DNA of 64,000 nucleotides from an uncultured Planctomycetaceae bacterium. Lineage in GTDB: Bacteria > Planctomycetota > Planctomycetia > Planctomycetales > Planctomycetaceae. The DNA is taken from the NCBI GenBank assembly GCA_963813715.1, contig CAWFAK010000005.1:32001-96000 (forward strand), in the 5' to 3' direction. The notes under the pieces are model-generated. The model searched no databases. It had not been told where the DNA came from and was given only the letters and a program-made list of their open reading frames with translations. The translations under genes were made by a program, and so were the position numbers. How positions within the stretch are numbered: the stretch's first letter is position 1; each line of letters starts with the position of its first letter. This document shows positions 12,643-64,000 of this stretch, in pieces.

Positions 12643-15146
<2,504 letters not shown>

Positions 15147-46739: not shown

Positions 46740-49700
46740 CTAGCCGTTGAGGATCTCGACGGCAGCCGAGAAGCCCGCCCACTGATTCTGGGAGTCGTCC
46801 GACGTGGACGTGGGGGGCGACGTCAGCGTGCCGGCGGTCTGCGGCTGAGAACCCGGCGAAGTGGGGCCGCTTGAGCCTACGGTCACCTGGATGGCGCCCG
46901 AAGCCGTGAGCGAATTTCCCAAGTCCGTGTAGCCGATCGCGATCGATGCCGAGCCGACGTAGCCCGTCAACGGCGTGAACGTGAGGTTCTTCAGGGCGTT
47001 GTTGAGGTTGGCCAGCGTACCCGTGATCGTCATCCCCGACGAGCTATTTGCGCCGGAGGTGAAGGTCAGCCCGGTCGTCGAACCGAGCTTGAGCTTGCCG
47101 TTGGTCGCGGAGAGCGTGACCTGTTCGATGCCGGTCCCCGCGTTGACGTCGGTGACGCTGATCAGGTCGTTGTTGGTCTTCGTGAACTGCACGGAGCCGT
47201 TCTCGGCGACCGACGCTGTTGACGGAGCCGTCAGCGTGGGCGCCAACGTAGCGATCGAAAGCGAGACGCTGGTCGAGGCGGACAAACCGTCCGGCGGATC
47301 CGAGACGGAAATCGCCAGCGTGTCAGCGCCCGAGTAGTTGGTGTTTGGCTTGTAGGTCAAGCCGTTGAGCGCGTTGTCGAGGTTGGTGACTGTCCCGGTC
47401 ACGGTGAAGGAGGCACTGCTGTTCTTGCCAGTCGTAAACGTCAAACCGCTCGTGCTGCCGAGCTTCAGCGTGCCGTTCGTCACGGAGAGCGTGAGCGATT
47501 CGGTCTTGATCGTGCCGGCGTTGCCGTCGGTAAACGAGATGGCGTTGCTGTTGGCGGCCGAGAAGACCAGCGTGCTGTTCTCGCTGAGCGAACCGGTCGA
47601 GGGAGCGGTGATTGTCGGGGCAGTGGCGGGTGAGATGGTGATCCCGACGTTGCTGGTGGCCGACTGGCCGTCAGTGGTGTCCAGCAGCGAAATCGCCAGC
47701 GTGTCGGATCCGCTGTACCCCGTCGTCGGCGTATAGGTCAGGCCGGTGAGCGCCTTGTTGAGATTGGCCAAGGTCGCGGCGATCGTGAAGGACGAGCTGC
47801 CGTTCTTGCCCGCCTTGAAGGTCAAACCGGGAGTCGAGCCGAGCGTCAGGATGCCGTTGGTGACCGAAAGGCTGAGCGTGCCGGTTGTCGAATTGGCGTC
47901 GGCGACCGTAATCGCATTGCTGTTGGTCGATGAGAATACGATCGTGACGTTTTCGCCCGTCGCGACGGACGTCGGCGCGGTAATCGTCGGCGGGCTGAGG
48001 GCGTTGATCGTCAGCGCCACGCTGGCCGAGGCTGACTGCTTGTTGACGCCATCGGCGACCGTGATCGAAAGCACATCGGTACCAACGTAGCCGGCGGTTG
48101 GCTTGTAGGTCAGGCCGGCCAGCGCCGCGTTGAGATTGGTCAGCGTCCCCGTCACAGCGATTGTGGCCGCGTTGTTCTTGCCGGTCGTATAGGTCAGCCC
48201 TGTCGTCGAGCCCAACGTCAGGATGCCGTGCGAGACCGACAGGGTCAGCGACTCGGTCTTGGCCGTGCCGGCGTTCACGTCGGTAAACGAGATGGGGTTG
48301 CCGTTGCCCGACGAGAACACGAGCGAACCATTCTCATTCAGCGAGCCCGTCGACGGTGCGGTGAGCACCGGGGGCTGGACGTTGACGGTGAGGGAGACGC
48401 TGGTTGCCGCCGAGTCGTTGTCGCCCGGATCGGCGATCGAGATCGCCAGCGAATCGGAGCCGATATAGGCGGTCGTCGGCGTGTAAGTCAAACCGTTGAG
48501 GGCGTTGTTCAAGCTGCTGACGGTGCCGCTGACGGTGAACGTCGCGGAGCCGTTGCTGCCCGTGGTGAAGGTCAGCCCGGCGGTTGACGCCAGGGTGAGC
48601 GTGCCGTGCGTCACTGCGAGGGTCAGCGAATCGGCACCGGAACCGGCGCCCGAGTCGGTGACAGAGACGGCGTTACTGTTGCCCGACGAGAAGACGAGTG
48701 AGCCGTCCTCAAAGAGCGAGCCGCTGGTCGGAGCGGTGATCGCCGGCGGGCTGAGTGCGACCACCGTCAGGCCGACGCTGGTCGAGGCCGACAGGGTGTC
48801 TGTGGTGTCGATGACGGAGATCAAAAGCGCATCCGAGCCGATGTAGGCCGGGTTCGGCTGATAGGTCAGTCCATTAAGGGCGTTGTCGAGATCGCTCGTT
48901 GCCCCCGTCACGGTGAAGGAAGAGGTGCCGTTGTTCCCGGAGGCAAACGTCAGACCCGAGGTGCCGGCCAACGTCAGCGTGCCGTGGGTTACGGAGAGCG
49001 TGAGCGAGTCGGGGCCGGCCGCCGAGTCCGTGATCGCAATGGCGTTGCCGTTGCCCGTCGAGAAGACGAGCGATCCATTTTCGCTCACCGAACCGGTGGC
49101 GGGCGCGGTCAAGGTTGGCGGCGCGTTGACCGTCAGCGACACGCTGGTCGACGCGCTCACGTTGGCGAGCGGATCGGAGAGCTGGACCAACAGCGAATCG
49201 GGGCCGGCGTAACCCGTGTTCGGGCTATAAGTCAGTCCGGCGACGGCGGCCTGCAGATCGCCGATCGTGCCGGAGACGGTCATCGAAGAGGAATCGTTGG
49301 CACCGGACGTGAAGGTCAGGTTGTTGGTGGAACCGAGCGCGAGCGTGCCCTGGTTGACCGACAGGGTCAGCGTATCGATGTTGGTGCCGGCGATCTGATC
49401 GGTGATGGTAATGGCGTTGCCGCCCGAGAAGACCAGCGAGGTGTTTTCGTTCGTCGACGCCGAGGCCGGGCCGGTCGCGGTCGGCGACCAGTTGATGTTC
49501 GTATTGGCCAGGTCGGGAACGAGCAGGTTGGCGATCGGCGTGCCTAAGCCGCTCACCAGGTCGTATCCAGGCGCCGCGTTGTAGGTGCCGTTGCCGCCAA
49601 CCGTGATATCGTGGAAGTCGGAGCTGGAAAGGTTGTACAACGTCGGCAAGGTCTGCGTGAGGCCGTTGAGACTTGGCTCACCGTTGAGGGCACGTCCCTG

Positions 49701-50831
49701 ATTGGCGATGGAGACGAGCGCGGCAGTCAACGGCGTGGCGAGGCTGGTGCCACCGACCTGGTACCATCCGCCCGAGTAGGTATCGAGGACGTAAACACCG
49801 GTGTCGGGATCCGCGTCCATCGAGATGTCTGGAACATTGCGATTGGTCGTGCTGGCGCCGTTAATACCGTTCAGCCCGTCCTGATAGGCCGGCAGCGGTT
49901 CGTACTGGCTGATGCCGCCGCCGGTGCCGTAACCGTTGTTGTTGTTCCAGACTGATTCGGAGATGTAAGTGCCGTCGGACTGGATCTGCAACGACGTGCC
50001 GCCGACAGCCACGACGTCCGGCGAGAAGGCGGGATAAATCGCAGGCGAATCCCAGTCGCCGGTTGCGGCCAGGAACGTCACGCCGCCCGTGCGCCCGGTG
50101 GGTGTGAGGTCGAAGGGGTCTTCCGACTGCTCGCCCTGGAATTCGTCCTCGCCCCAGCTCATTGACACGACCGAGACAGCCGGATTGGCGGCAGCGGTAG
50201 CCACGGCCTGGTCCATGTCGGGGTCGTTGTTGGTGTTCGACTCGTAGAGGATGATATTCGCCTGCGGGGCGATTGAGTGGGCCCACTCGACGTCGAGCGA
50301 TTCTTCGACGTCCCAGCCCTGTCCGTTGGTGGTCGGCAACGACGTGCCGCCGGTTTGATTGAGCACCTGGAAGGTCGGACCGCCCTGAACGTTGAACTGC
50401 GGCAGATTGAACGTGCTGCTGAAGTTCTGTGCGTCGGTGACGATGTTGGGGTCGTTGTACGCGTCGACGATGGCGATCGTCTGACCTGCGCCGGTGCCGC
50501 TGACGCCGTTAAACGAAATCTGGTTCACGCCGTAAGCAGTGGTCATTTGGGCCGGCGTGTAGGGGGCCGAGGCGACCGTCGTAGCCGGAGTGACGCCGTT
50601 TTTGCCGACGTTCGGCGCGGCAACCTGGCCGGCCACGATGATCGCCGGCTGATAGGCGGCGACGGCCGAGAGCATTTGCCGCGCTTCGAGGGCTTCGACG
50701 ACGGGCCCGCAGCAGACGGGCTGCTGCATGCGGTCAAGTTCTCGTTGATTTCGCCGGCGGGGCACCTTGCGGCCGCGGTAGGTATTTCCTCGGGTCTGCG
50801 AAAAAATCGACAGCCGGCGAGAGAACAGCAT
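46740..50831 (-). CDS. Secreted S53 (sedolisin) peptidase with 7 Ig/cadherin-like repeats
   Basis: Leader LEARQMLS; EESLDVEW (Glu/Asp), AATGD, GGTSLATP (Ser), YDLVSGLGTP (Ca site); seven ~115-aa repeats; C-terminal QWAGF motif. Confidence 0.88.
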   Translation of the reverse strand: MLFSRRLSIFSQTRGNTYRGRKVPRRRNQRELDRMQQPVCCGPVVEALEARQMLSAVAAYQPAIIVAGQVAAPNVGKNGVTPATTVASAPYTPAQMTTAYGVNQISFNGVSGTGAGQTIAIVDAYNDPNIVTDAQNFSSTFNLPQFNVQGGPTFQVLNQTGGTSLPTTNGQGWDVEESLDVEWAHSIAPQANIILYESNTNNDPDMDQAVATAAANPAVSVVSMSWGEDEFQGEQSEDPFDLTPTGRTGGVTFLAATGDWDSPAIYPAFSPDVVAVGGTSLQIQSDGTYISESVWNNNNGYGTGGGISQYEPLPAYQDGLNGINGASTTNRNVPDISMDADPDTGVYVLDTYSGGWYQVGGTSLATPLTAALVSIANQGRALNGEPSLNGLTQTLPTLYNLSSSDFHDITVGGNGTYNAAPGYDLVSGLGTPIANLLVPDLANTNINWSPTATGPASASTNENTSLVFSGGNAITITDQIAGTNIDTLTLSVNQGTLALGSTNNLTFTSGANDSSSMTVSGTIGDLQAAVAGLTYSPNTGYAGPDSLLVQLSDPLANVSASTSVSLTVNAPPTLTAPATGSVSENGSLVFSTGNGNAIAITDSAAGPDSLTLSVTHGTLTLAGTSGLTFASGNNGTSSFTVTGATSDLDNALNGLTYQPNPAYIGSDALLISVIDTTDTLSASTSVGLTVVALSPPAITAPTSGSLFEDGSLVFSSGNSNAVSVTDSGAGSGADSLTLAVTHGTLTLASTAGLTFTTGSNGSATFTVSGTVSSLNNALNGLTYTPTTAYIGSDSLAISIADPGDNDSAATSVSLTVNVQPPVLTAPSTGSLNENGSLVFSSGNGNPISFTDVNAGTAKTESLTLSVSHGILTLGSTTGLTYTTGKNNAATIAVTGTLTNLNAALAGLTYKPTAGYVGTDVLSITVADGVNKQSASASVALTINALSPPTITAPTSVATGENVTIVFSSTNSNAITVADANSTTGTLSLSVTNGILTLGSTPGLTFKAGKNGSSSFTIAATLANLNKALTGLTYTPTTGYSGSDTLAISLLDTTDGQSATSNVGITISPATAPTITAPSTGSLSENSTLVFSAANSNAISFTDGNAGTIKTESLTLSVTNGTLKLGSTSGLTFTTGKNSSASFTVTGTVTNLDNALNGLTYKPNTNYSGADTLAISVSDPPDGLSASTSVSLSIATLAPTLTAPSTASVAENGSVQFTKTNNDLISVTDVNAGTGIEQVTLSATNGKLKLGSTTGLTFTSGANSSSGMTITGTLANLNNALKNLTFTPLTGYVGSASIAIGYTDLGNSLTASGAIQVTVGSSGPTSPGSQPQTAGTLTSPPTSTSDDSQNQWAGFSAAVEILNG

Positions 50832-50901
50832 GCTTCGGGCTCCAACGGCTAATTGGGCAATGGGTTGTGATTCGGAGGGATGCTGCAAGCGCGACTCGAA
50901 G

Positions 50902-50995
50902 GGTGCTGGCCCAAGCACCGGGCGCGTAGGAAGAACTCCTGACGCCATTCGAGAGTCGTGCCTCACAGTTTGCCGTCGCGAGGAGCCGGTGACAA
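50902..50995 (-). promoter_or_regulatory. Promoter (TTGTCA-N17-CAAACT) and 5'-UTR hairpin GGTGCT-TGGGCC-AGCACC of S53 gene 1
   Basis: Same architecture upstream of all three S53 paralogs. Confidence 0.6.
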
Positions 50996-51218
50996 CGCGC
51001 CGGTCGCGAGATTTCTGTGAATTTTCTGAAGGGAAGCAGGCCGCTCTAAGAACCGAACGTCAATCGCGGCAGAAGTGGACAGACGAGCACGGTAAAACGC
51101 CAGAAACCATGCGCGCCCGGATGGTTTTCGACCGTCCCCGTAGCGCGCGCTGCCTTCCATCTGCGGCGCACCGGAGGTCACCGCGGAAATTCGTTCACGC
51201 GAACGACCGGCGCGGACG

Positions 51219-54200
51219 TTAGTTGATCAGGAACTCGAGGGCTTGGAGAAAGCCAGCCCATTGAGTCTGTGCGTCGATCGGTGTGGACGCGTCCCCGTCG
51301 GCGCTTCCGCCCGTCGTGGCGGGATTGGTCAGCGACAGGGTCGCCCCTCCGGTCACCGGCACAAACTGGCGGTCGCCTTGCACCGGAGCCGGCGTCACAA
51401 CGAGCGAGCGGGATGCCCGGCCGTTGCGGCTAACGGTGAGGGCGATGCTGCCTGTGCCTGTCAGGCCGTCACCCGCGTCCGTGTAGCTCAGTGAGATCGA
51501 GGCCGAACCGGTGAAATTTCGAGTCGGCGTGTAGGTGAGGCCGTTGAGGGCGTTGTTGAGATTGGTCAGCGTGCCGCTGATCGTCATCGAGGCAGAGCGG
51601 TTAGCCCCGGATGTGATCGTGATGCCGCTCGTCGATCCGAGACGCAGGGTGCCGTGCGTGGCTGTGAGCGTCAGCTTCTCGGTGCTGGTGCCCGCGCTGG
51701 CGTCGGTGATGGTGATCGACTTGGAGAAGGCGACGGAGCCGTTCTCGGCGACCGAGGCTGTGGCTGGAGCCTTGATCGTCGGCGCGACAGCCGCGTTCAC
51801 GGTGAGGGTCACGCTATCCGACGCGGACAAACCATCGCCCGGATCGGAAATCGAGATCGACAGCGAATCGGAGCCGGAATAATTGGTCGCCGGCTTGTAA
51901 ACCAGTCCATTGAGAGCCGCGTCGAGGTTGGCGATCGTTCCGGTCACCGTCACCGTCGACGAACCGTTCGCGCCGGCGGTGATCGTCAGGCCGGAGGTGG
52001 AAGCCAAGGTCAGCGTGCCGTGCGTGACGGCCAGGGTCAGCGAGTCGGTGCTGCCGGCGCTCGAGTCGGCGACTGAAATCGCGTTGCCGTTGGTCGACGA
52101 GAAGGTCAGAGAACTGTTCTCGTTGAGCGAACCGCTCGTGGGAGCGGTGATCGCGGGCGGGACTGGCGGCCGTAACGGTCAGGCCGATGCTGTCCGAATC
52201 CGAGAGGCTATCGCCCGGATCGGAAAGTGAAATCCCCAGCGTGTCCGAGCCGGAATAGCCGGCCGTCGGCTGATACGTGAGGCCGTTGAGGGCCGCATTG
52301 AGGCTGGACAAAGTGCCGGTCACGGTGAACGCCGCCGTGCCGTTGCCGCCCGTCGTAAACGTCAGCCCGGTCGTCGAGGCGAGCGTCAGAATTCCGTTCG
52401 AGACCGTGAGCGTGAGCGAATCACTGCCGCTGCCGGCGCTCGCATCCGTCAGCGTGATGGCGTTGCCCTTGCCCGTCGAGAAGACGAGCGAGGAATTCTC
52501 AGCGACGGTGGCCGTACTGGGAGCAGTGATCGTCGGCGGCGTGGGCGCGTTCACGCTCAGCGACACGCTGGCCGAGGCCGACAGGCTGTCGCCCGGATCG
52601 GTGACCGAAATCGCCAGCGAATCGGAGCCGGCATAACCCGCAGTCGGCTGATAAACGAGTCCGGCGAGCGCCGCATCGAGGCTTGAGACGGTGCCGGTCA
52701 CAGTGAACGAGGACGAGTCGTTGCTGCCAGATGTGAAGGTGAGTCCCGACGTGGTCGACAACGTCAACGTGCCATGCGAGACGGACAGCGTCAGCGAATC
52801 GGCGTTGGTGCCGGCGCTCGCGTCGGTGACGCTGATGGCGTTCCCGTTGGCCGACGAGAAGGTCAACGAGCCATTTTCGGCCAAGCTTGCCGACGCGGGG
52901 GCGCTGACGCTCGGCGGTTGCGTTGTGCCGTATCCCGCCAGGGCGGGGACGAGCAAATTGGCGATTGGCGTGCCCAGTCCGGTGACCAGATCGTAACCCG
53001 TCCCGGCCGAGTAGGTGCCGTTGCTGCCGGTTGTGATGTCGTGGAAGTCGGAACTGGGCAATTGGTAGAGCGTCGGCAGTGTTTGCGTCGCGCCGTTGAG
53101 GGATGAATCGCCCAAGAGGGAGCGTCCCTGGTTCGCGATGGCGATCAGGCCGCCCCACATCGGCGTCGCGAGGCTCGTCCCGCCGACCTGGAACCAGCCA
53201 CCGTCGTAGCTATCGAGGACGTAGACGCCGCTGTTGGGGTCGGCATCCATGGCGACGTCGGGCACGTTGCGATGCGTCGTGCTCGCACCGTTGACGCCGT
53301 TGAGCGAGCTTTGATAGCTGGGGATGGTCTCGTATTGGCTGATCCCGCCGCCCGTATCGGACCAGGCGCCCTCGGCGATGTATTGGCCGCTGCTGTTGAT
53401 ATCCAAAGTCGTGCCGCCGACGGCCACGACGTCGGGACTGAACGCCGGATATCCCGAAGGCGTGCCGTCATCGCCGGTGGCCGCCAGGAAAGTGACGCCC
53501 TGATGACCGTTGGGCGTGACGAAGTTGGAATCGAAGCCGGTCTCCGAGGAGCTTTCGCCGCCGTCCCAGCTCATCGACACGACCGAAACGCCGGCGTAAT
53601 CGGCCGCCGTGTCGACGGCCTGGAACAGGTTCGCGTCGGAGTTGGAAGAAGCCTCGAAGAGGATGATGTTCGCATCGGGGGCGATCGAGTGAGCCCACTC
53701 GACGTCGAGCGCTTCTTCAACGTCCCAGCCCCCCTTGGCCGCGTTGGCCGGCAGCGACGTGCCGCCCGTTTGATTCAGGACCTTGAGCGTGGGCTCGCTG
53801 CTGCCGTTGAACTGCGGCAGACCGAATTGGCTGCTGAAGCTATTGGCGTCGGAAATGATGTCCGGATCGTTGTACGCGTCGACGATGGCGATCGTCTGGC
53901 CGGCCCCGGTTCCTGCGACGCCGTTAAAGGAAATCTGGTTGATCCCGTAGGCCGCCTGCATCTGGGCCGGATCGATGGGGGCGGTGCCGGCCGTGACAGC
54001 CGGTTTGTTGGTCGCCGCGCCATGGGCCTCGAGAATAAAGGTCGGCGTGGCGACGGCGGTGAGGGCGGACGCGGCAGAGAGCATCTGGCGGCCTTCGAGC
54101 GTCTCGGCGGCCGGACCGCAGCAGACCGGCTGGCCGATGCGTGCCGCGTCGCGTCGACGTTTCAGCGGTCGACGAGAGCGGGAGGACGACGGGCGGACGA

Positions 54201-54237
54201 AGTTGGACAAAAACGGAAACCGAAGCGACAACAGCAT
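51219..54237 (-). CDS. Secreted S53 peptidase with 4 Ig/cadherin-like repeats; frameshift near 52160
   Basis: GGAGG RBS; LEGRQMLS leader; EEALDVEW, AATGDD, GGTSLATP, YDLVTGLGTP; repeats continue in ORF 51219..52007, ending QWAGFLQALEFLIN. Confidence 0.86.
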
Positions 54238-54304
54238 CCTACCGGCCTCCTGTGGCGGGTGAATTTGACCGTCAGGTGTTCGCCAAACACGAACTGAGTC
54301 AGAA

Positions 54305-54398
54305 GGTGCCGGCCCAGACACCCGTCCTAAAGAAAATCGTCGGACGATTTTCTGCCCAGTCACACCAATAGTCTGCCCGTCGGCGAACTGGAGATCAA
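54305..54398 (-). promoter_or_regulatory. Promoter (TTGATC-N17-CAGACT) and 5'-UTR hairpin GGTGTC-TGGGCC-GGCACC of S53 gene 2
   Basis: Conserved across the paralogs; also a perfect 10-bp inverted repeat AGAAAATCGT/ACGATTTTCT at 54331-54353. Confidence 0.6.
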
Positions 54399-54436
54399 CT
54401 TAGCCCAATTACGTCAAAAAGTGCTTCCAATCAACC

Positions 54437-57400
54437 TCAACCGGCCAGCACTTGCATTGCGGCCGCAAACCCCGCCAGCTGCGTTTCGGAGTCCGGAGGC
54501 AGGGTGCTGGTCGAGAGCGAGTTAGCCGAAGGGACGCTCGACGAGGCCGGTCCCGCGGGCGCGCCTGCCTGCAGGATCGTGCTCGACGAGACGGTGATGT
54601 TGGCCGTCACCGACTGGTTGGTTGCGAGGTCGGTGTAGGCCAGGGTGATCGTTGCCGCCTTCGCCTGCAGCGTATAGGTCATCCCGTTGAGGGCCAGATT
54701 CAGGTTGGCCAGCGTTCCCTCGATGGTCATCGACGCAGAACCATTGGCCCCGGAGATAAACGTAATCCCAGTCGTGCTGGCGAGTTGCAAGATGCCCGAA
54801 GTCGCCTTGATTGTCAGTTCTTCGGTGCTGCTGCCGGCGCTCCCGTCGGCAATGCTGATCGCATCTCCCTTGGCGGCGGAGAAAGTGGTCGTGCCGCCAA
54901 CTGTCGACCTGACGCTGGTCGGTGCGCTGATCGAAGGCGGGGCACTACCCGAAACGTTGATCGACACGCTGGCCGAGCCCGACAGGTGATCCGCCGAATC
55001 ATTGATCGCCACGGCGAGCGAGTCGGCACCCGTATAGTTGCTGGTCGGCTTGTAGGTCAGTCCGGCAAGCGCCGCGTTGAGGTTGGTGATTGACCCCGTG
55101 ACCGTGACCGTGGACGACCCGTTAGCGCCGGCCGTGATCGTCAGGCCCGAGATCGTCGACAAAGTCACCGTGCCATGCGAGACCGTCAACTGCAGCGAAT
55201 CCGAACCGCTTCCCGGCCCTGCATCCGCGACTGAAATCGGGTTGCTGTTGCCCGACGAGAAGACCAGCGAGCCGTTCTCAGGCACCGTAGCCGATCCCGG
55301 AGCTGAAACCGTCGGCGGGCTGTTGGCGTTGACCGTGATGGCCACGCTCTTCGAGGCCGACTCGCTGTCGCCGGGGTCCAAGAGAGAAATCGCCAGCGAA
55401 TCGGAGCCGGTGTAGCTGGTCGTCGGCGTATAGGTAAGGTTGTTGAGGGCCGCATTCAAACTGGTGACGGCGCCGGTCACGGTGAAGGACGCCGAGCCGT
55501 TGCTCCCGGCCGTAAACGTCAGGCCGCTGATCGTCGAGAGTGTGATCGTCCCGTGAGCGACCGACAGGGTCAGCGTATCGCTGCTGCTGCCGGCCGCCGA
55601 GTCGGCCACGCTGATCGCGCTCGAGGAGAAGATCAGCGAATTGTTGACGAGCACCGAGGCCGTCGCCGGCGCGGTAATCGTCGGCGCCGGCAAGGAGTTG
55701 ATGCTCAGCGAAACGTTCTTCGAGGCCGACTGGCCATCGCCCGGATCTTGGAGCGAAATCGCCAGCGTATCGCTGCCCGTGTAAGCGGCCGTCGGCTGGT
55801 AGGTAAGGCCGTTGAGGGCCGCGTTGAGGTTGCCGACCGTGCCACTCACTGTGAAGGTGGCCGAACCGTTGCTGCCGGACGTGAACGTCAGACCGGACGT
55901 GGTGGAAAGCGTCAGTTTGCCGTGCGCGACCGCCAGCGTGAGCGAGTCGCTGCCGGGATTGGCGTCGGCGAGCGAGATTGCGTTGCCGTTGCCGGTCGAG
56001 AAGGCCAGCGACCCGTTCTCCGTGAGCGAGGCCGAAACTGGCGCCGCGATCGTCGGGGCCAGCGCGCTGACTGTGATGGCCACGCTGCCAGAGCCAGTTT
56101 TGTTGTCGGTCGGGTCGCTGACGGAGAGGGCCAGCGTGTCGGAACCGGCGTAATTCGTCGTCGGCTGGTAGGTCGTTCCTACCAGGGCGGCGTTCAAGTT
56201 GGCTACGGTCCCCTTGACCGTGAAGGCGGCGGAGTCGTTCGAGCCCGAGCTGAAAACCAGTCCATTGGTGGTGCCCAAGGTCAGGGTGCCGTGGCTGACC
56301 GACAAACTCACCGAATCTGCGCCGAAGCCCAACCCGTCGTCGGTCAGCGAGATCAAGTTGCCGTTACCCGTCGAGAAGACGAGCGAGCCATTCTCCGCTA
56401 CGCTAGCCGTAGAAGGCGCCGTGAAGGTGGGGGCGATCGGTGCGACCGTGATCGAAACGCTGGAGGAGCCGGTCAGGCTTTCGCCTGGGTCGGTTAGCGA
56501 CACCAGCAGCGAGTCGGCGCCGCTGTAATACGTGGTCGGTTGATAGGTCAGACCGGAACTGTCCAGATCCGCGTTCAGGTTGGCGATGGTCCCGCTCACC
56601 GTGAACGAAGAGGAGCCGTTCGTCCCGGACGTGAACGTCAGGCCGGTGGTCGAGCCGAGCGTCAACGTTCCGTCGGAGACCGAGAGCGTGAGCGAATCGG
56701 CAGCACCGGCGGAGAACGGATCGGTCAGGGTGATCGCGTCGCTGTTGGCCGTCGAGAGTGTCGCCGACCCGTTTTCGGCCACGTTGAGCGTGGACGGGTT
56801 GCTCACGGCAGGCGCAGTCGAACCGTATCCCGCCAACGCGGGCACGAGCAGATTGGCGACGGGAGTGCCCAGCCCAGTGACCAGATCGTAACCCGGCGCA
56901 GCCGAGTAGGTGCCGTTGCTGCCGGTCGTGACGTCGTGGAAATCGGAACTCGGCAGGCTGTAGAGCATCGGCAGGGTTTGCGTGTACCCGTTGAGCGTCG
57001 ATTCGCCCGCGAGCGCCCGTCCCTGGTTGACGATGCCGATCATGCCGGCCCACAACGGAGAACTGAGGCTCGTGCCGCCCACCTGGAAGTAGCCGCCACC
57101 TTGCCCTTCGTTCCATGTGTCATAGACGTAGACGCCACTGTCGGGATCGGCGTCAGCCGAGACGTCGGGAACGTTACGGTTCGTGGTGCTCGAGCCGTTG
57201 ATGCCGTCGAGGTTGTCCTGGTAATAGGGCAGCGCTTCCTGCGTGCTGATGCCGCCGCCCGTGGCCCAACCATTGTTGTCGTTCCAAACCGATTCTGAGA
57301 TGTACGTGCCGCTGTTCTGAATCTGCAGGTTGGTGCCGCCCACGGAGACGACGTAGGGCGAGTACGCCGGATAGCCGGCGGGGCTGCCCGAGTCGCCGGC

Positions 57401-58183
57401 CGAGGCCAGGAAGGTGACCCCCTGGTGGCCGGTCGGCGTCTGGAAGTATTGGTCTTCGGAAGTCTCGCCGGAGAATTCGCCTTCGCCCCAGCTGTTGGAG
57501 ATCACGGAGACGCCGGGCCAACCGGCGGCGGTGACTTCGGCCTGGTCCATGTCCGGGTCGTTGGCCGTGGTCGACTCGAACAGGATGACGTTGGCCTCCG
57601 GCGCCATCGAGTGCACCCACTGCACGTCGAGTGATTCCTCGAGGTCCCAGTCGCCGACTGTCGTGTTGGTGTTCATCGGCAGCGTCGTGCCGCCGTTTTC
57701 GTTCAGCACCTGAAACGTCGGACCGCCGGAGTTGAATTGCGGCAAGCCGAATCGCGTGTTGAAGGTGGCCGTGTCGGAGACGATGTTCGGATCATTGTAG
57801 GCGTCGACGATGGCGATCGTCTGTCCGGCGCCGTTGCCGACAATTCCGTTGAAGGAAATCAGGTTCACGCCGTAGGCCGTCTGCACCTGCGACGGCGTGT
57901 AAGGCGCCGAGGCGTTGTCGGGCGAATTCGTGGGCTTCACGCTTCCAGGAGCCGCGACGCGGCCCAGGTTGATCAACGTCGGCACGGCGATGCCGGCGGC
58001 GGTGGCGGAAACGGCCGCCGAGAGCATTTGCCGCCCTTCGAGTTCCTCGACGGTCGGTCCGCAGCAAATCGGACCAGGAATGAATGCCGTGTCTCGTCGG
58101 CTGCGTCGACTCAGGTGCCGCTTGAACCGGACAGGCTTGGACCCGATTTTGCGCGAAATCGTGAGCCGCCTAGAAAACAACAT
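54437..58183 (-). CDS. Secreted S53 peptidase with 6 Ig/cadherin-like repeats
   Basis: LEGRQMLS leader; EESLDVQW, ASAGDS, GGTSLSSP, YDLVTGLGTP; C-terminal QLAGFAAAMQVLAG. Confidence 0.88.
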   Translation of the reverse strand: MLFSRRLTISRKIGSKPVRFKRHLSRRSRRDTAFIPGPICCGPTVEELEGRQMLSAAVSATAAGIAVPTLINLGRVAAPGSVKPTNSPDNASAPYTPSQVQTAYGVNLISFNGIVGNGAGQTIAIVDAYNDPNIVSDTATFNTRFGLPQFNSGGPTFQVLNENGGTTLPMNTNTTVGDWDLEESLDVQWVHSMAPEANVILFESTTANDPDMDQAEVTAAGWPGVSVISNSWGEGEFSGETSEDQYFQTPTGHQGVTFLASAGDSGSPAGYPAYSPYVVSVGGTNLQIQNSGTYISESVWNDNNGWATGGGISTQEALPYYQDNLDGINGSSTTNRNVPDVSADADPDSGVYVYDTWNEGQGGGYFQVGGTSLSSPLWAGMIGIVNQGRALAGESTLNGYTQTLPMLYSLPSSDFHDVTTGSNGTYSAAPGYDLVTGLGTPVANLLVPALAGYGSTAPAVSNPSTLNVAENGSATLSTANSDAITLTDPFSAGAADSLTLSVSDGTLTLGSTTGLTFTSGTNGSSSFTVSGTIANLNADLDSSGLTYQPTTYYSGADSLLVSLTDPGESLTGSSSVSITVAPIAPTFTAPSTASVAENGSLVFSTGNGNLISLTDDGLGFGADSVSLSVSHGTLTLGTTNGLVFSSGSNDSAAFTVKGTVANLNAALVGTTYQPTTNYAGSDTLALSVSDPTDNKTGSGSVAITVSALAPTIAAPVSASLTENGSLAFSTGNGNAISLADANPGSDSLTLAVAHGKLTLSTTSGLTFTSGSNGSATFTVSGTVGNLNAALNGLTYQPTAAYTGSDTLAISLQDPGDGQSASKNVSLSINSLPAPTITAPATASVLVNNSLIFSSSAISVADSAAGSSSDTLTLSVAHGTITLSTISGLTFTAGSNGSASFTVTGAVTSLNAALNNLTYTPTTSYTGSDSLAISLLDPGDSESASKSVAITVNANSPPTVSAPGSATVPENGSLVFSSGNSNPISVADAGPGSGSDSLQLTVSHGTVTLSTISGLTITAGANGSSTVTVTGSITNLNAALAGLTYKPTSNYTGADSLAVAINDSADHLSGSASVSINVSGSAPPSISAPTSVRSTVGGTTTFSAAKGDAISIADGSAGSSTEELTIKATSGILQLASTTGITFISGANGSASMTIEGTLANLNLALNGMTYTLQAKAATITLAYTDLATNQSVTANITVSSSTILQAGAPAGPASSSVPSANSLSTSTLPPDSETQLAGFAAAMQVLAG

Positions 58184-58242
58184 CCCCAGACTCCTGCAAC
58201 AGGTGCGCGATTCGGGCGGAAAAGCGAGAGGAAACACGGCCC

Positions 58243-58317
58243 GACGGTGCCGGCCCAGCGCCCGTCTGAAGAAATGAAAGGCGTCGCTAGTTTCGCCGAC
58301 GGCGAGGCAGAGATCAA
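58243..58317 (-). promoter_or_regulatory. Promoter (TTGATC-N17-GAAACT) and 5'-UTR hairpin GACGGGCGC-TGGGCC-GGCACCGTC of S53 gene 3
   Basis: Conserved across the paralogs. Confidence 0.6.
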
Positions 58318-58458: not shown

Positions 58459-61400
58459 TTAGACTTCGGAGTCGGGCGGGATGGAACTCGTTGCGGGGCC
58501 AGTTGTTGTGTTTGACGACGGCGAATTTCCCAGGGTCGTATTCCCGAAGAGGGTCACCGTGGTGGAGGACGTTCCCTGCCCTCCCGTCACCAGGTTGGTG
58601 TAGACCATCCCGATCGTCTGACTCTTTCCCGTGAGCGTATACGTCAGCGTGGCAAGGGCGGCGTTGAGGTTGGCCAGCGTTCCCTGGACGACCATCTGCA
58701 TCGAGTTGTTGGCACCTGACACAAAAGTCAGCCCGGTGGTCTTGCTCAGGTTCAGTGTGCCCCCCGAGTCCTTGATCAGGAGCTGTTGCACGCCAGTCCC
58801 GGCGCTCGGGTCCGTGATGCTGACCGCGTCGGTCCCGGTGAAGCTCACCGCGTCGGATCTCGTCAAGATGGCCGTGGGCGCCTTGATGGCCGGCGCCGTG
58901 CTGCCGGTGACACTTAACGTGACGTTGGCGGAAGCCGACTGCCCATCGGACGAATCCTTGATCGCCACCGACAGCGTGTCGGGACCTGTGTAGCCGGTCG
59001 ACGGCTGATAGACCAAGCCGTTCAAGGCCGCGTTGAGATTGACCAGCGAACCGGTGACAGTGATCGTGGTCGAGCCGTTCGCTCCCGAGGTGACGGTCAA
59101 CCCCGTGGTGCTTGCCAGCGTCACCGTGCCGTGGGAAACGGTGAGCGTCAGCAAGTCGGAACCGTTCCCGGGACCACTGTCGGCCACCGAGACGGCATTG
59201 TCGGTGGCCGGCTCGAAGACCAGCTCTCCGTTCTCACTGACCACGGCGCCGCTGGGAGCCGTGATCGTCGGGGGCAAGAACGCGGTAATCGTCAGGGCCA
59301 CACTGGTCGACGCCGACTCATTGTCTCCCGAATCGGAAATCCCAATCGAGATTGCAGCGGCACCCGAGTAACCGGACGTGGGACGATAGATCAGACCGTT
59401 GAGCGCGGCATTGAGGTTGGCAAGCGTGCCGGCCACGGTGAACGAGGCCGTGCCGTTGGTCCCGGCCGTAAAGGTGAGCCCTGTCGTGGAGGCCAAGGTC
59501 AACGTGCCGTGAGTGGCGGTGAGCGTTAGCGAGTCGGTGTTGGCGCCGATCCCCGTGTCGGCGACGGCAATCACATTGCCGTTCGTCGCGGAGAAGGTCA
59601 GCGATCCGTTTTCGGCGAGAGCGGCCGTGGCGGGCGCGGTGACGCTCGGCGGAGCCAGGCCGACAATGCTCAGCGACACGTTCGCGGAAGCGGACTTGTT
59701 ATCGCCCGTATCGGTGATCGTGATCGCCAGCGTGTCGGCGCCGGTGTAGCCCGATATCGGCTGGTAGGTCACGCCGTTGAGGGCCGCATCCAAGTTGGTG
59801 ACGGTTCCGCTCACGGTCATCGAGGCGGAGTCGTTGCTGCCGGCCGTGATCGTCAAGCCGGTCGTGCTGGCCAAGGTCAGCGTGCCGTGCTGCACCGAGA
59901 GCGCCAGCGAATCGGTGCCCGGATTGGCATCACTAACGGTAATGCCGTTGCCGTGGGAACTCGCGAAGGGCAGCGCGGTGTTCTCATTCAGCGAGGCGCT
60001 CGACGGAGCTGTGATCGTCGGAGCCAGAGCATTGACAGTCAGCGCGACCGACGCGGAACCCGACTTGCCGTCATTCGAGTCCACCACCGAGATCGACAGC
60101 GTGTCCGAACCGGCAAAACCGGTCGCCGGCTGATAAGTCAAACCGTTGATGGCGGCGTTGAAGTTCGCCACCGTCCCCTTCACGCTGAACGAAGAGGAGC
60201 CGTTGAAGCCGCTGACGAACACCAGTCCGTTGGTCGAACCAAGGGTCAAGATGCCGCTGGAGACGGACAGCATCTCCGTATCGGCGCTGGTGCCGGCGCC
60301 GTTGTCCGTCAGGGTGATCGGGTAGCTGCTGGTTGTCGAGAAGGTGAGCGTGCCGTTCTCGATGACGGCGGCCGTTATTGGCGCGCTGATCCCCGGAGCG
60401 GCGATCGCGTTGATGGTCAGCGCAACGCTGCTGGTGGCCGACAGGCCGTCCCCCGGATCGCGGAGCAACACGGTCAACGTGTCCCCACCGGTGTAACTGA
60501 AGTTGGGCTGGTAGCTCAGGCCATCGAGGGCGGCGTTGAGATTGCCGATCGGCCCGCTGACGGTGAACGAGTTGGAGCCGTTGGTGCCGCTGGTGAAAGT
60601 CAGGCCGGTTGTCGCTCCCAGCGTCAGGGTGCCGTTTGCCGCGGAGACGGTCATCGAATCGGAGCCGCTCGCGCCGAGGTCAGTCACGCTAATCTCGTTG
60701 CCGAAAGCCGAGGAGAAGGTGAGGGCCGTATTCACGGTCGTGCTGCCGGTCGACGGACCGCTCACGGTGGGTAGAGCCTTCACGCTGAGCGAGACGGAGG
60801 TCGCGGAGGACTTGCTGTCCGCCAGGTTGGTAATCGTCAGGGACAGCCCATCAGAGCCGAAGTAATTAGCCGTGGGCTGGTAGATCAGGCCGTCGAGCGC
60901 CATGTTGAGGTTGCTGAGCGAGCCGGTCACGGTGAACGAACTTGTGCCGTTCGTGCCCGACGTGAAGGTCAAGCCGAAGGTCGTGTGCAACGAGAGCGTG
61001 CCGTGCGTGACAGAGAGCGCCAGCGCATCGCCGCCAGCGTTGACGTCGCTGACGGAAATCGAGTTGCCGTTCCCCGTCGAGAAGACGAGCGACTGGTTGG
61101 CCCCGACGATGGCCGAACTCGGCGCAGAAACCAGCGGCGCCAAGGCGTTGACGATCAGCGAAACGGTCGTGCCGCCGGAGAGATTGTCCGCCTGGTCCTG
61201 GTCCGAGAGGCTCAGCGTGTCGGTGCCGTAGAATCCCGCGGTCGGCGTATATGTGAGGCTGGCCAGATCGGCGTTGAGGTTCGGCAGCAGGCCGGTCAGG
61301 ACGACGGTCGCGCTGTTGTTTCCCGTCACCGTCAGCCCGGTCGTCGTTGCCAGATCGAGCGTGCCGTCGCCGACCGACAGCGTCAGCTGCTCGTCCGAAC

Positions 61401-64000
61401 CGCTCACGTCGCCTACGGTGATCGCATTGCCGGCAGTAAAGGTCACACTGCCGTTTTCGGCGACGCTAATGCCGCCGGTGGGAGCCGTGATGGTGGGAGA
61501 CACCGGCACCACGGTGATTGACACGGTGGTCGTTCCCGTCAGACTGTTGCCGGTATCCGTGTCGGACAGCGACAGCACGTCGGGGCCGAGGTAGCCGGAC
61601 GTCGGCGTGTAGGTGAGGGTCGCCAGGTCACTGTTCAGGTTGGACAGCGAGCCGGTCAGCGTGAGCGAGGTGGAACCGTTGCCGACGACCGTCAGTCCGG
61701 TCATCGTCCCCAGAGTAAGGGTGCCGTTGGTCACCGAGAGGACCAGTTGTTCGGCCGTCCCACTGGGATCGACGACGCTGATCGCGTTGCCCCCGCTCAA
61801 CGTCAGGCTGCCGTTCTCGTTGACCGTCACGCCTGTGGGGACTTTGAACGTCGGCGCGACCGGGGTAATCGTGATCGAGACGCTGGCCGAGTTGATCAAC
61901 TCGTCGGTCGTGTCCTTCACGGAGAGCGACAGCGTGTCGGCGCCCAGGTAACCGGTGGTCGGCGTGTAGACGAGCGTGGGCAAGTCGTTATTGAAATTGG
62001 TCAGCGAACCGGTCAGGGTCAGCGTTTTCGTGCCGGCTCCGGACACCGTGAGGCCCGCCGTGGTGGTCAGGTTGAGCGTGCCATTGCTCACAGTGAGCAC
62101 CAGCTGCTCGGCCGTGCCGCTGGTGTCCGCAAGGCTGATCGCATTCTGCCCGTTGAAGACGAGAGTGCCGTTCTCGTTAACGCTGACGGCCAAGGGCGCG
62201 GTGATGGTCGGAGCGAACGCGGTGTTCGAGAACGGGTTGGAGGCGATACCGTCCGCGATGACGACAATCGTGAACGGGTCGTTGCCGATGGCGGCCGGCA
62301 GCACGACGTTGGCCGTTTCGGGCGTGCTGCCGGTGGCGACGCCGACCGAGCTCCAATCTGAGGTCGTCGCGTAGTAAACGGTCCCCGTGCTGGTGTCGAC
62401 CACCCGCACGATGGGATAGTTCTCCGCCATCTGGTTGTCGTCGCCGTAGGACGCCCCTTCGTCGAGTCCGTTGAGCTGCGTTCCCGTCAGCGTGTAGTCG
62501 TTGCCACTCTGCTGCGTGAAGCTGGTGATGGTCGGTTGCCAGGACGCCTGCGGACTCCCGTTGGGCGTGTAGACGGCGAGCTGATTGTTGTCGTCGGTCA
62601 GCAGCAGCTGTCCCGTCGGCAGGATGAGGAACGTATTGATAAAGCTGTTACTGTCACTGAGGAACGGATCGACGGTCGCCGAGGGCGTAATGTTCGTCCA
62701 GACGTCGGCCGTCGTGTTGAGGTCGTAGATATAGGTCGGCCCCGGGAATTGTTCCTCCCCGGTGTTGTCGATGTAGACCGCGGGCGAAAGCGCCAGCACG
62801 ACGTCCCCATTGGGCAGGATGGCGCCCGGCGCGTCGCCTGTCGTAAGCTGCGTCATGACGCCGTTGATCATGACAGAGGGCATCGTCGGGCCCTGCGTCC
62901 AGGAGTTCGTGCCTGGATTGTAGAGCGCGGTCGTGCCGTTGGTTCCAGTGAAGAGCGCGTCTCCATTGGCCAGCAGAAGCGCGGGGCCCAACTCATAACC
63001 CGTGCCCTCCGTCGAGAGCAGGGGAATCGTGCCGACCGTGCTGCTGGCGTCGGACCAGGTATTCGTGCTGGGGTTATACAGCTCGGCCTCGAACTTGTTG
63101 TCGGTGATGCTCGAGAAGAGGTCGTAGGTGAGGATGTCGCCGTTGGCCAGCTTCACCCACGCCTCCTCGTCGCTCTGGTCGTTGTGGACCTTGGTGCCGC
63201 CCGCGCTCCACGCATTCGTGGTTGGGTCGTAAATCTCGGTGCCGTTGTCTTCGATGTCGCCCACGAGGACGTTGCCATCCGGCAGGAGCTCGGTCGGTTC
63301 GTCCCCGACAATCGACTTCGGACTGCTCGCCACCATCGTCCACTTGCTGGTGACCGGATTGTAGATTTCGGCGGAATTCGAGAAATTCTCGTCGGTCGCA
63401 TACTCGCCGCCCACGACGAAGACTTCGCCGTTAGGCAGCACGGTGGACCCGAAATAAAGACGTCCGACATTCATCGAGCCCGCCACCGTCCAGGTCCCGT
63501 CGACGTAGCTGCCGGTGCTGTCGGGCGTGACCAGATACCAACTGGTAGAAGGGCCGTTGCCGCCGCCTCCATGCACGAAGAGTTGACCGTTGGGAAGCAA
63601 AAGACTCAACTGGCCCGCGTCCCCCTGCGGAACCGCGTTCGACATGGCGGTCCAGTTCTGCGACACCGGCGCGATGACGGTCAGCGGCACGGTCTTCGAC
63701 GCCGATTGGTTCGTCCCCGGATCCAGCAACGTCACCGACAGCGTATCGCCGCCCAAGTAATTGGTCGCCGGCTGAAAGGTCAGCCCGTTGAGGGCGGCGT
63801 CCAGGTTGGTGACCGTTCCGCTCACCGTGAACGAAGCCGAATTGTCGGTGCCGCTCGTGAAGGTGAGACCGTTGGTCGTCGCCAGGCTCAACGTCCCATG
63901 CAACACGGCAAGGGAGAGCGAGTCGGCATTGGTGCCGGCACTCGTGTCCGTGACATCGATGGCGTTGTTGTCGGCCGTGGAAAACGTCAGCAAGTTGTTT
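58459..64000 (-). CDS. Giant secreted repeat protein with Kelch-type beta-propeller domain and at least 11 Ig/cadherin-like repeats (5' end outside window)
   Basis: Kelch blades (LPNGEVFVVGGE..AEIYNPVTSKWT, LPDGNVL..EIYDPTTNAWS, LANGDIL..ELYNPSTNTWS, LANGDAL..LYNPGTNSWT); 10 repeats after the propeller and at least 1 before it; the frame is open to the window edge. Confidence 0.85.
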   Translation of the reverse strand, partial: NNLLTFSTADNNAIDVTDTSAGTNADSLSLAVLHGTLSLATTNGLTFTSGTDNSASFTVSGTVTNLDAALNGLTFQPATNYLGGDTLSVTLLDPGTNQSASKTVPLTVIAPVSQNWTAMSNAVPQGDAGQLSLLLPNGQLFVHGGGGNGPSTSWYLVTPDSTGSYVDGTWTVAGSMNVGRLYFGSTVLPNGEVFVVGGEYATDENFSNSAEIYNPVTSKWTMVASSPKSIVGDEPTELLPDGNVLVGDIEDNGTEIYDPTTNAWSAGGTKVHNDQSDEEAWVKLANGDILTYDLFSSITDNKFEAELYNPSTNTWSDASSTVGTIPLLSTEGTGYELGPALLLANGDALFTGTNGTTALYNPGTNSWTQGPTMPSVMINGVMTQLTTGDAPGAILPNGDVVLALSPAVYIDNTGEEQFPGPTYIYDLNTTADVWTNITPSATVDPFLSDSNSFINTFLILPTGQLLLTDDNNQLAVYTPNGSPQASWQPTITSFTQQSGNDYTLTGTQLNGLDEGASYGDDNQMAENYPIVRVVDTSTGTVYYATTSDWSSVGVATGSTPETANVVLPAAIGNDPFTIVVIADGIASNPFSNTAFAPTITAPLAVSVNENGTLVFNGQNAISLADTSGTAEQLVLTVSNGTLNLTTTAGLTVSGAGTKTLTLTGSLTNFNNDLPTLVYTPTTGYLGADTLSLSVKDTTDELINSASVSITITPVAPTFKVPTGVTVNENGSLTLSGGNAISVVDPSGTAEQLVLSVTNGTLTLGTMTGLTVVGNGSTSLTLTGSLSNLNSDLATLTYTPTSGYLGPDVLSLSDTDTGNSLTGTTTVSITVVPVSPTITAPTGGISVAENGSVTFTAGNAITVGDVSGSDEQLTLSVGDGTLDLATTTGLTVTGNNSATVVLTGLLPNLNADLASLTYTPTAGFYGTDTLSLSDQDQADNLSGGTTVSLIVNALAPLVSAPSSAIVGANQSLVFSTGNGNSISVSDVNAGGDALALSVTHGTLSLHTTFGLTFTSGTNGTSSFTVTGSLSNLNMALDGLIYQPTANYFGSDGLSLTITNLADSKSSATSVSLSVKALPTVSGPSTGSTTVNTALTFSSAFGNEISVTDLGASGSDSMTVSAANGTLTLGATTGLTFTSGTNGSNSFTVSGPIGNLNAALDGLSYQPNFSYTGGDTLTVLLRDPGDGLSATSSVALTINAIAAPGISAPITAAVIENGTLTFSTTSSYPITLTDNGAGTSADTEMLSVSSGILTLGSTNGLVFVSGFNGSSSFSVKGTVANFNAAINGLTYQPATGFAGSDTLSISVVDSNDGKSGSASVALTVNALAPTITAPSSASLNENTALPFASSHGNGITVSDANPGTDSLALSVQHGTLTLASTTGLTITAGSNDSASMTVSGTVTNLDAALNGVTYQPISGYTGADTLAITITDTGDNKSASANVSLSIVGLAPPSVTAPATAALAENGSLTFSATNGNVIAVADTGIGANTDSLTLTATHGTLTLASTTGLTFTAGTNGTASFTVAGTLANLNAALNGLIYRPTSGYSGAAAISIGISDSGDNESASTSVALTITAFLPPTITAPSGAVVSENGELVFEPATDNAVSVADSGPGNGSDLLTLTVSHGTVTLASTTGLTVTSGANGSTTITVTGSLVNLNAALNGLVYQPSTGYTGPDTLSVAIKDSSDGQSASANVTLSVTGSTAPAIKAPTAILTRSDAVSFTGTDAVSITDPSAGTGVQQLLIKDSGGTLNLSKTTGLTFVSGANNSMQMVVQGTLANLNAALATLTYTLTGKSQTIGMVYTNLVTGGQGTSSTTVTLFGNTTLGNSPSSNTTTGPATSSIPPDSEV

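Follow-up and report, generated by a model that had tools for sequence, protein, structure and literature searches.

Do neighbouring peptidase genes of an uncultured planctomycete share a regulatory element, and would such an element be read as RNA or as DNA? The question is raised by a 64,000-nucleotide stretch of DNA from an uncultured Planctomycetaceae bacterium (contig CAWFAK010000005.1, positions 32,001 to 96,000, of assembly GCA_963813715.1; hereafter the window, and its genome G000), in which three tandem genes of peptidase family S53, genes 1 to 3, carry the sequence UGGGCC upstream of their start codons. A preliminary description of the window had proposed a covarying RNA hairpin in the 5′ untranslated region (UTR) of all three, with UGGGCC as its loop. 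We find that the conserved unit is an 11-nt core, TGGGCCNGCAC, of the pattern UGGGCC-N-GCAC. Tentatively, and at slightly less than even probability, we read the element as a site in a structured 5′ leader RNA that is recognised by its sequence and through which the S53 paralogs are co-regulated. To our knowledge, little has been described of gene regulation in Planctomycetota, and the leaders, promoters and RNA-binding regulators of the phylum are almost uncharted.

The element in three leaders

All three elements lie on the minus strand, where they had first been placed. Upstream of gene 1, hairpin P3 (50902..50919) consists of GGTGCT (50919-50914), the loop TGGGCC (50913-50908) and AGCACC (50907-50902); as RNA, GGUGCU-UGGGCC-AGCACC, it closes into a perfect 6-bp stem, with the core at 50913-50903. 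The P3 hairpin of gene 2 (54305..54322; GGTGTC, loop TGGGCC at 54316-54311, GGCACC) likewise forms 6 bp as GGUGUC-UGGGCC-GGCACC, one of them U-G. The element of gene 3 (58243..58266) retains the core as TGGGCCGGCAC (58257-58247), and in it GACGG (58266-58262) can pair with CCGTC (58247-58243) to enclose GCGC-TGGGCC-GGCA. The 9-bp stem GACGGGCGC/GGCACCGUC that had been proposed for gene 3 does not exist, as the two arms are not complementary and its inner positions are G.A, C.C and G.G mismatches. The only possible pairs are those of the outer GACGG/CCGUC stem and the loop-closing C-G, a 1-nt deletion, seen in comparison with the orthologs, disrupts the inner stem, and in the predicted fold part of the supposed UGGGCC loop is paired. 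Gene 3 also has an alternative hairpin, B (58237..58258, minus strand), in which CTGGGCCGGC (58258-58249) and GTCGGGCCG (58245-58237) flank a loop ACC, followed by a T/C-rich tract. Hairpin B and the outer GACGG/CCGTC stem are mutually exclusive, and B is retained in most gene-3-like copies but not in all, locus L046 being without it.

Direct reading places TTCTT 7-14 nt upstream of the element in all three genes, as first described. The remainder of each UTR is mostly diverged, again as described, except for a promoter-like block and a block beside the Shine-Dalgarno (SD) sequence GGAG, both of which are conserved. The UGGGCC loop lies about 50-60 nt upstream of the SD sequence and never varies; GCCC, with which the loop had been suggested to pair, is frequent in these G+C-rich leaders. 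Just past the end of the window, the leader of a fourth paralog holds a degenerate copy of the element, GGTC-TCGGGCCATT-GACC, whose stem is eroded further in the related genome G002 (L052).

Conservation of the core

The 12-mer TGGGCCRGCACC with at most one mismatch occurs nine times in the window against 1.12 expected, a number reached by none of 100 shuffles, and its exact copies in the 7.5-Mb genome number 14, compared with 5 for the reversed control. Three of these 14 are upstream of genes while 11 look like coding sequence by reading, so that occurrence alone is weak evidence. A fourth exact copy in the window (14266-14277) is antisense, inside the open reading frame (ORF) at 12775-14328.

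The main argument against chance is that orthologs and paralogs in other genomes conserve the core at the same place. Among the upstream regions of 70 loci, compared together with G000 itself, the core lies 70-92 nt upstream of the ATG in 14 S53 paralogs of five genomes, in sense orientation throughout: genes 1-3 of G000, genes 1-3 of G002, three genes in G003, four in G007 and one in G009. The element therefore has further instances beyond the window, with 14 copies in five species if the three window genes are included. When the 300-nt upstream regions of four gene-1 orthologs are aligned, the distal half is essentially unalignable, and conservation is dense only in the promoter-like block, in a structured junction around the hairpin and in the SD region. 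A few bases from the core, changes are saturated in comparisons of paralogs as well as of orthologs from different species, whereas the core itself is invariant in 14 of 14 copies. Because the flanks of orthologs are unalignable, the comparison clearly points to purifying selection on the core.

Two explanations would deprive this pattern of regulatory meaning. The first is that the core has no function of its own and is a remnant of a duplicated ancestral upstream region or has been homogenised by gene conversion between tandem paralogs, which would suit the confinement of all copies to one paralog family, the tandem arrangement within G000 and the lack of significant covariation described below. 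We regard this as extremely unlikely, since it leaves 11 invariant nucleotides amid saturated flanks, and conversion tracts would bring flanking identity, of which none is seen. The second is that the stretch is translated, as in genes 1 and 2 the frame stays open ahead of the ATG. Here, the indels among orthologs in the leader (-80 to -84) are not multiples of three and the stretch is therefore non-coding, while the SD sequence and a conserved MLFS.R N-terminus fix the start codon; together these rule the coding explanation out.

As a separate matter, TGGGCCGGCAT recurs in the S53 coding region about 1.1 kb past the ATG (L032, L033 and L037), within the catalytic domain, as coding sequence for part of a conserved peptide (read as LWAGM). 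It has no relation to the leader motif and is a trap for pattern searches.

Distribution and database searches

A covariance model built from 12 copies separated the 14 known copies (32.3-51.3 bits) from the next match (26.7 bits) in 12 genomes of the genus. Twelve weaker matches, read by eye, fall in long open frames, except for a degenerate copy before the gene-2-like paralog of G009. The model found only near-identical strain copies (L115-L119) in 80 metagenome loci encoding relatives; matches of 21-23 bits in L120-L122 are the same sequence as a match in G010 (L095), which falls in a long open frame. Across Planctomycetota, 79 loci of species-representative genomes returned the known copies and the degenerate gene-2-like copy of G009, at 20.1 bits. 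Because the strong matches are training sequences or their twins, these searches serve as negative evidence only. They indicate that the element is confined to the S53 paralog family in one sub-clade of one uncultured Planctomycetaceae genus, while S53 paralogs themselves are present in all 11 other genomes of that genus.

The absence of a matching Rfam family, supposed at the outset, holds at gathering thresholds for the whole window (Rfam 15, 0 matches). With the cut-off relaxed to E ≤1, five loci (17,820 bases) gave only a chance match to H19_2 (E 0.59; 19.1 bits against a gathering threshold of 50). No publication on this leader element turned up in the literature, as judged from search results only. 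As a candidate leader motif it would be new, although its general kind is known; its distribution is narrow, and it is clearly under selection.

Pairing in the hairpin

In an alignment of 12 sequences, 81.7% of cells in the 6-bp hairpin are paired, against 31-65% when the 3′ partner is slid, and the observed covariation score is reached by 3 of 500 shuffles. The covariation that had been proposed stands as far as the closing pair is concerned, which takes three Watson-Crick forms (C-G in 8 of the 12, U-A in 2 and G-C in 1, with 1 unpaired). This is, however, the sole pair changed on both sides, and its signal is not significant on a wider alignment, so that covariation support for the hairpin is weak. 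The neighbouring pair is C-G in five and U-G in four of the 12 sequences, and in the near-identical strain L117 a C-G has become U-G. An alternative register with the outer GACGG/CCGUC stem suits the gene-3 clade (79.8% paired). While the left arm varies widely (GGTGCT, GCTGCC, GGCGTC, GGGCGC, ATGGT, TTGCG), the right arm GCAC and the centre TGGGCC do not vary at all, and sequence is therefore conserved more than structure. Folding and alignment together make the P3 hairpin plausible and suggest that sequence is conserved beyond any single fold.

A predicted three-way junction in genes 1 and 2

In the gene-1 clade, the surroundings of the hairpin have better structural support than the hairpin itself. 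Minimum-energy folds reproduce the three-way junction that had been described for genes 1 and 2, where an outer stem encloses P3 and a second hairpin. The junction of gene 1 (50892..50958) combines P1 (CGACTC, 50958-50953, with GAGTCG, 50897-50892), P2 (50946-50921; AGGA/UCCU with a GGCG/CGCC base) and P3. That of gene 2 (54293..54360) is analogous, with P1 formed by ACTGGGCAG (54360-54352) and CTGACTCAGT (54302-54293) around an inner hairpin and P3, and with a P2 of unrelated sequence. Throughout the gene-1 clade (5/5 orthologs) the same junction is the minimum-energy structure, and in four of the five its segment lies below shuffles in folding energy (z -1.8 to -2.9). RNAalifold assigns 20 pairs to it, five of which have changed on both sides. 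The loop-proximal pair of P2 is A-U, U-A, G-C or G-U among the gene-1 orthologs, and the base of P2 reads GGCG/CGCC, GGGCU/AGUCC or GCUGU/ACGGC with pairing kept. Between clades, P2 is wholly different in sequence and length, and the gene-3 clade has no P1, its leader offering the two mutually exclusive hairpins and then a U/C-rich tract. An anti-SD role for the CU-rich 3′ strand of P2 was rejected, as in G003 the changes compensate within P2 and not towards the SD sequence.

These helices could serve without any dedicated binder, as a plain structural 5′ leader in which junction and hairpin protect long mRNAs from decay that depends on the 5′ end, or direct processing. The leader of ompA carries such a stabilising stem-loop at the 5′ terminus of a bacterial mRNA, and the resemblance is that genes 1 and 2 are predicted to have structure at the far 5′ end of the transcript, where P1 begins about 7-9 nt past the -10-like hexamer, and that the genes are long (2.4-5.5 kb). 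The hairpin also persists at the same place in diverged paralogs in which the loop is altered (L034, L045, L066, L067 and L129). Stabilisers of the ompA type, however, need no conserved loop sequence, and the explanation does not account for a 6-nt loop and a GCAC arm that are invariant in all 14 copies while stems and flanks change; furthermore, gene 3 and the gene-3-like copies have the hairpin further inside the leader, away from the predicted 5′ end. We judge it unlikely.

A ligand sensor resembling a riboswitch, with the junction as an aptamer controlling expression, has still less in its favour, and we give it hardly any probability. The purine riboswitch is itself a small three-way-junction aptamer, and the leaders of genes 1 and 2 resemble it in their three-helix junction of about 70 nt with conserved loop nucleotides, which is conserved in the gene-1 orthologs; in the gene-3 clade, two mutually exclusive hairpins and a U/C-rich tract could suggest a switch, and without an Rfam match the class would be new. 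It is made unlikely by the junction not being common to all copies, since the gene-3 clade is without P1 and P2 differs between clades. In addition, the distribution is very narrow for such a class (five species, one gene family), no recognisable expression platform reaches the SD sequence, no terminator-like site is flagged at the three hairpins and the covariation of the shared hairpin is not significant.

A scan for terminators flagged one site elsewhere in these leaders, in the inner hairpin of gene 2 (54358-54341) and not in P3, where 0.7 would be expected. Intrinsic terminators and attenuators, in which a run of U directly adjoins a G+C-rich hairpin, were rejected as a model; hairpin B of the gene-3 clade, together with its U/C-rich tract, is at most suggestive of one.

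Promoter-like block and predicted leader

A block of the form TTGNNN-N17-NA(A/G)ACT is common to the gene-1, gene-2 and gene-3 groups and ends 31-53 nt upstream of the core. In gene 1 it spans 50967..50995 (TTGTCA at 50995-50990 and CAAACT at 50972-50967), in gene 2 54370..54398 (TTGATC at 54398-54393 and CAGACT at 54375-54370) and in gene 3 58289..58317 (TTGATC at 58317-58312 and GAAACT at 58294-58289), on the minus strand in each case and with a 17-nt spacer; its putative promoter function follows from this form. Orthologs of gene 1 carry TTGATA-N17-CAAACT, the one in G009 TTGATA-N17-AATAAT. A strict sigma-70 scan flagged no promoter in the three upstream regions, and for that reason the promoter is an assignment from the shared pattern. 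The element lies between this block and the SD sequence and ATG and is always in sense orientation, as had been described. Since P1 starts about 7-9 nt past the -10-like hexamer in genes 1 and 2 (about 8 nt in gene 1), the mRNA would have the junction at its extreme 5′ end. All three hairpins are represented in contigs assembled from four RNA libraries of soil and rhizosphere.

Two other promoter readings were rejected. A sigma-54 promoter has GG and GC elements spaced as in TGGCAC-N5-TTGC; by reading, no TTGC or GC stands at the needed spacing past GGCAC, and gene 1 has AGCAC. Promoters for extracytoplasmic function (ECF) sigma factors, as well as an invertible element, are ruled out by spacing and orientation, again by reading.

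A second and very well conserved promoter-like block, TTGAAT-N17-TCCAAT, whose spacer ends in GAATTA(A/C)TG, precedes gene-3-like and gene-4-like paralogs of several genomes (L035, L037, L051, L052, L053, L067 and, upstream of gene 4, G000:C5 at about 97560-97600). At L053, in G010, only about 45 nt separate it from the ATG, without a subsequent hairpin. Both blocks, TTGNNN-N17-NA(A/G)ACT and, in the related paralogs, TTGAAT-N17-TCCAAT, add a candidate promoter consensus for these bacteria.

A proposed recognition site, in RNA or in DNA

The pattern to be explained is an invariant asymmetric 11-mer in constant orientation and positioned within the predicted leader, with variable pairing partners and with helices kept by compensation. 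Under the reading that we prefer, a recognition site in leader RNA, transcription would probably start about 7 nt past TTGNNN-N17-NA(A/G)ACT. The leader would then measure roughly 110-135 nt, with the element 30-55 nt from its 5′ end. Its first feature in the gene-1 and gene-2 clades would be the three-way junction, whose P3 arm bears UGGGCC and then GCAC, while in the gene-3 clade the same core would be housed in the GACGG/CCGUC hairpin. One putative trans-acting factor, most plausibly a protein, would bind the hairpin region sequence-specifically and set mRNA stability, translation or elongation jointly for all paralogs. Sequence-specific binding is likely because the 11-nt core is constant while its partners, the neighbouring helices and the flanks change. 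Observed are the element's conservation, its place and orientation, its confinement to this gene family and its capacity to fold, whereas the transcription start, the reading as RNA and the binding factor are inferred.

A close parallel in form is the iron-responsive element, a UTR hairpin with a conserved hexaloop that is bound by iron regulatory protein (IRP) or aconitase. In both, a conserved 6-nt loop tops a short stem of variable sequence in the 5′ UTR of several co-regulated mRNAs, and recognition would depend on sequence combined with shape. The S53 element differs in its loop sequence, in its invariant GCAC 3′ arm, in its restriction to one gene family of five bacterial species and in a predicted fold that hides the loop in half of the copies. 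Short hairpins of the CsrA/RsmA type, whose loop contains GGA and which mostly overlap the SD sequence, were rejected as a model, as the UGGGCC loop has no GGA and lies some 50-60 nt upstream of the SD sequence.

Several observations weigh against a site in RNA. The copies all derive from one duplicated gene family in one genus sub-clade, and are few and not independent. When two diverged gene-2-like copies and a strain variant were added and the stem extended, giving an alignment of 14 sequences and eight pairs, 66.4% of cells were paired and 139 of 500 shuffles reached the covariation score, significance being lost because of the diverged copies, the strain variant and the longer stem. The 3′ arm GCAC, being invariant, cannot covary. 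Folding energies of the short hairpins do not stand out from those of shuffles (z 0.15, -1.16 and 0.76), and UGGGCC is unpaired in the loop in local folds of only 7 of 15 copies. Gene 3 of both G000 and G002 keeps its core although a 1-nt deletion has disrupted its inner stem. In three of five orthologs the antisense strand of the junction folds equally well or better, so that fold energy does not pick the strand, and the RNA-library contigs also span whole intergenic regions, as DNA carry-over or read-through could produce.

Much of this would be expected if 11-12 bp were bound as double-stranded DNA by a transcription factor that sits past the promoter, acts there as a repressor or roadblock and co-regulates the paralogs, with the hairpin incidental. 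Such an operator would explain why TGGGCC and GCAC are invariant more strictly than pairing requires, why the core of gene 3 is intact, and why the loop is free in only 7 of 15 copies and fold energy favours neither strand; the gene-3 clade has, by reading, a second GGGCCG 14 nt downstream as well. Against it, the site is asymmetric with its centre most conserved, whereas a two-fold symmetric operator would leave its spacer free, and the distance to the promoter-like -10 is variable and, at 31-53 nt, far for promoter occlusion; from the TTGAAT-N17-TCCAAT block it is about 60 nt or more (by reading). A DNA site also leaves unexplained the compensatory changes that maintain P1 and P2 in the gene-1 orthologs and the wobble-compatible changes from C-G to U-G, and no regulator gene adjoins the cluster among the 14 neighbouring ORFs scanned. 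Overall we consider an operator rather unlikely. Its palindromic, dimer-binding form was rejected outright, as the TGGGCC centre is invariant and asymmetric and the right arm GCAC is fixed while the left arm varies.

In those 14 neighbouring ORFs, no dedicated regulator gene was found beside the cluster, and the only regulatory domains are those of an Ada/AlkA-type fusion and a cNMP-binding protein.

A paralog of NusG could also recognise the element, as RfaH reads ops/JUMPstart elements and LoaP-type NusG paralogs read leader hairpins, with the site recruiting the factor or pausing RNA polymerase for processivity across very long genes. Shared with those systems are a short, invariant and orientation-specific leader element of 11-12 nt, a variable distance to the promoter, long genes for surface or secreted products and a NusG paralog in the genome. 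The second NusG-like protein of G000 (C7:1038503-1038691; N-terminal match of 38.8 bits) is encoded before another giant secreted-protein gene; only its N-terminal domain was scored, the rest of the open frame of about 175 amino acids being read by eye. A second NusG N-terminal domain does not, however, co-occur cleanly with the motif, as it is found in four of the five motif genomes (G000, G003, G007 and G009, not G002, which is 87% complete) and also in three of seven without the motif (G004, G005 and G006), among genus genomes that are 65-98% complete. The paralog is encoded away from the S53 cluster, the gene beside it has no copy of the motif in its leader according to the covariance model, and the P1 and P2 helices would have no role. 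Nor does the sequence resemble the ops consensus. We regard a NusG site as very unlikely. The giant gene (C7:1040683-1049784) lies about 2 kb downstream of the NusG-like gene and encodes an arginine-rich N-terminus and LE.LE.R.LLS like the S53 proteins; the two genes may represent a specialised antiterminator with its target.

A more specific version of the preferred reading, a site in leader RNA, would make the UGGGCC-N-GCAC hairpin the dock for a dedicated putative regulator, either a specialised NusG paralog or a planctomycete-specific RNA-binding protein, that switches on the giant S53 peptidases together. In this form the proposal is speculative, and its chances are small. If true, it would reveal a lineage-specific post-initiation regulon for which Planctomycetota have so far offered no described example, and whose RNA half would be the leader with the three-way junction. 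Regardless of the reader, a motif shared across an expanded family of secreted peptidases offers an experimental handle, as bait or in reporters, on extracellular protein degradation by soil planctomycetes, within the limits set by five uncultured species, modest structural support and a function that is predicted from sequence.

The S53 cluster and other features of the window

Gene 1 (46740..50831, minus strand; ATG at 50831) encodes 1363 amino acids, with an S53 kumamolisin-like domain followed by Big_9/cadherin-like repeats. Gene 2 (51814..54237, minus strand; ATG at 54237) is an S53 paralog with an ORF of 807 amino acids and an early stop, and gene 3 (54437..58183, minus strand; ATG at 58183) encodes a further paralog of 1248 amino acids with Big_9 repeats. 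The C-terminal part of the fourth tandem paralog, with Kelch and Big_9 repeats, occupies 58459..63993 on the same strand, its start lying past the window end, and a fifth S53 paralog is found on the same contig away from the tandem cluster.

The assignment to family S53, made in the preliminary description, agrees with similarity that spans the catalytic domain. The N-terminal 440 residues of the three gene products are the part that matches kumamolisin and sedolisin structures, and kumamolisin is the best solved relative (kumamolisin-As, E 5.9e-33 over residues 90-438; sedolisin, E 3e-16). Pfam at E 1e-3 recovered Big_9/cadherin domains only and no peptidase domain in these products. Protein identity between the S53 clades is only about 55-65%. 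The paralogs have in common an unusual N-terminus, in which MLFSRRL leads into an arginine-rich stretch and then P(V/I)CCGP and E.LE.RQMLSA before the peptidase domain (coding regions 50700-50831, 54100-54237 and 58050-58183); it may be a lineage-specific export or sorting signal.

An overlapping ORF (51219-52007, minus strand) with a Big_9 domain carries the repeat region of gene 2 on in another frame. One contig of an RNA library (run X1) is without 3+1 bases at 52160/52164, indels that by frame arithmetic would fuse both gene 2 ORFs into one protein of about 1005 amino acids, which points to a frameshift or an assembly indel in G000 at 51219-52164 on the minus strand. The fourth paralog (G000:C5:96054-97455, beyond the window end) is matched in two segments that meet near C5:96870-96880, as a further frameshift there would produce. 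Elsewhere in the window, a serine recombinase gene with Resolvase and Recombinase domains (22322-23755, minus strand) is followed by two small ORFs without Pfam matches; these genes may together form a mobile element, which would lie some 23 kb away from the S53 cluster.

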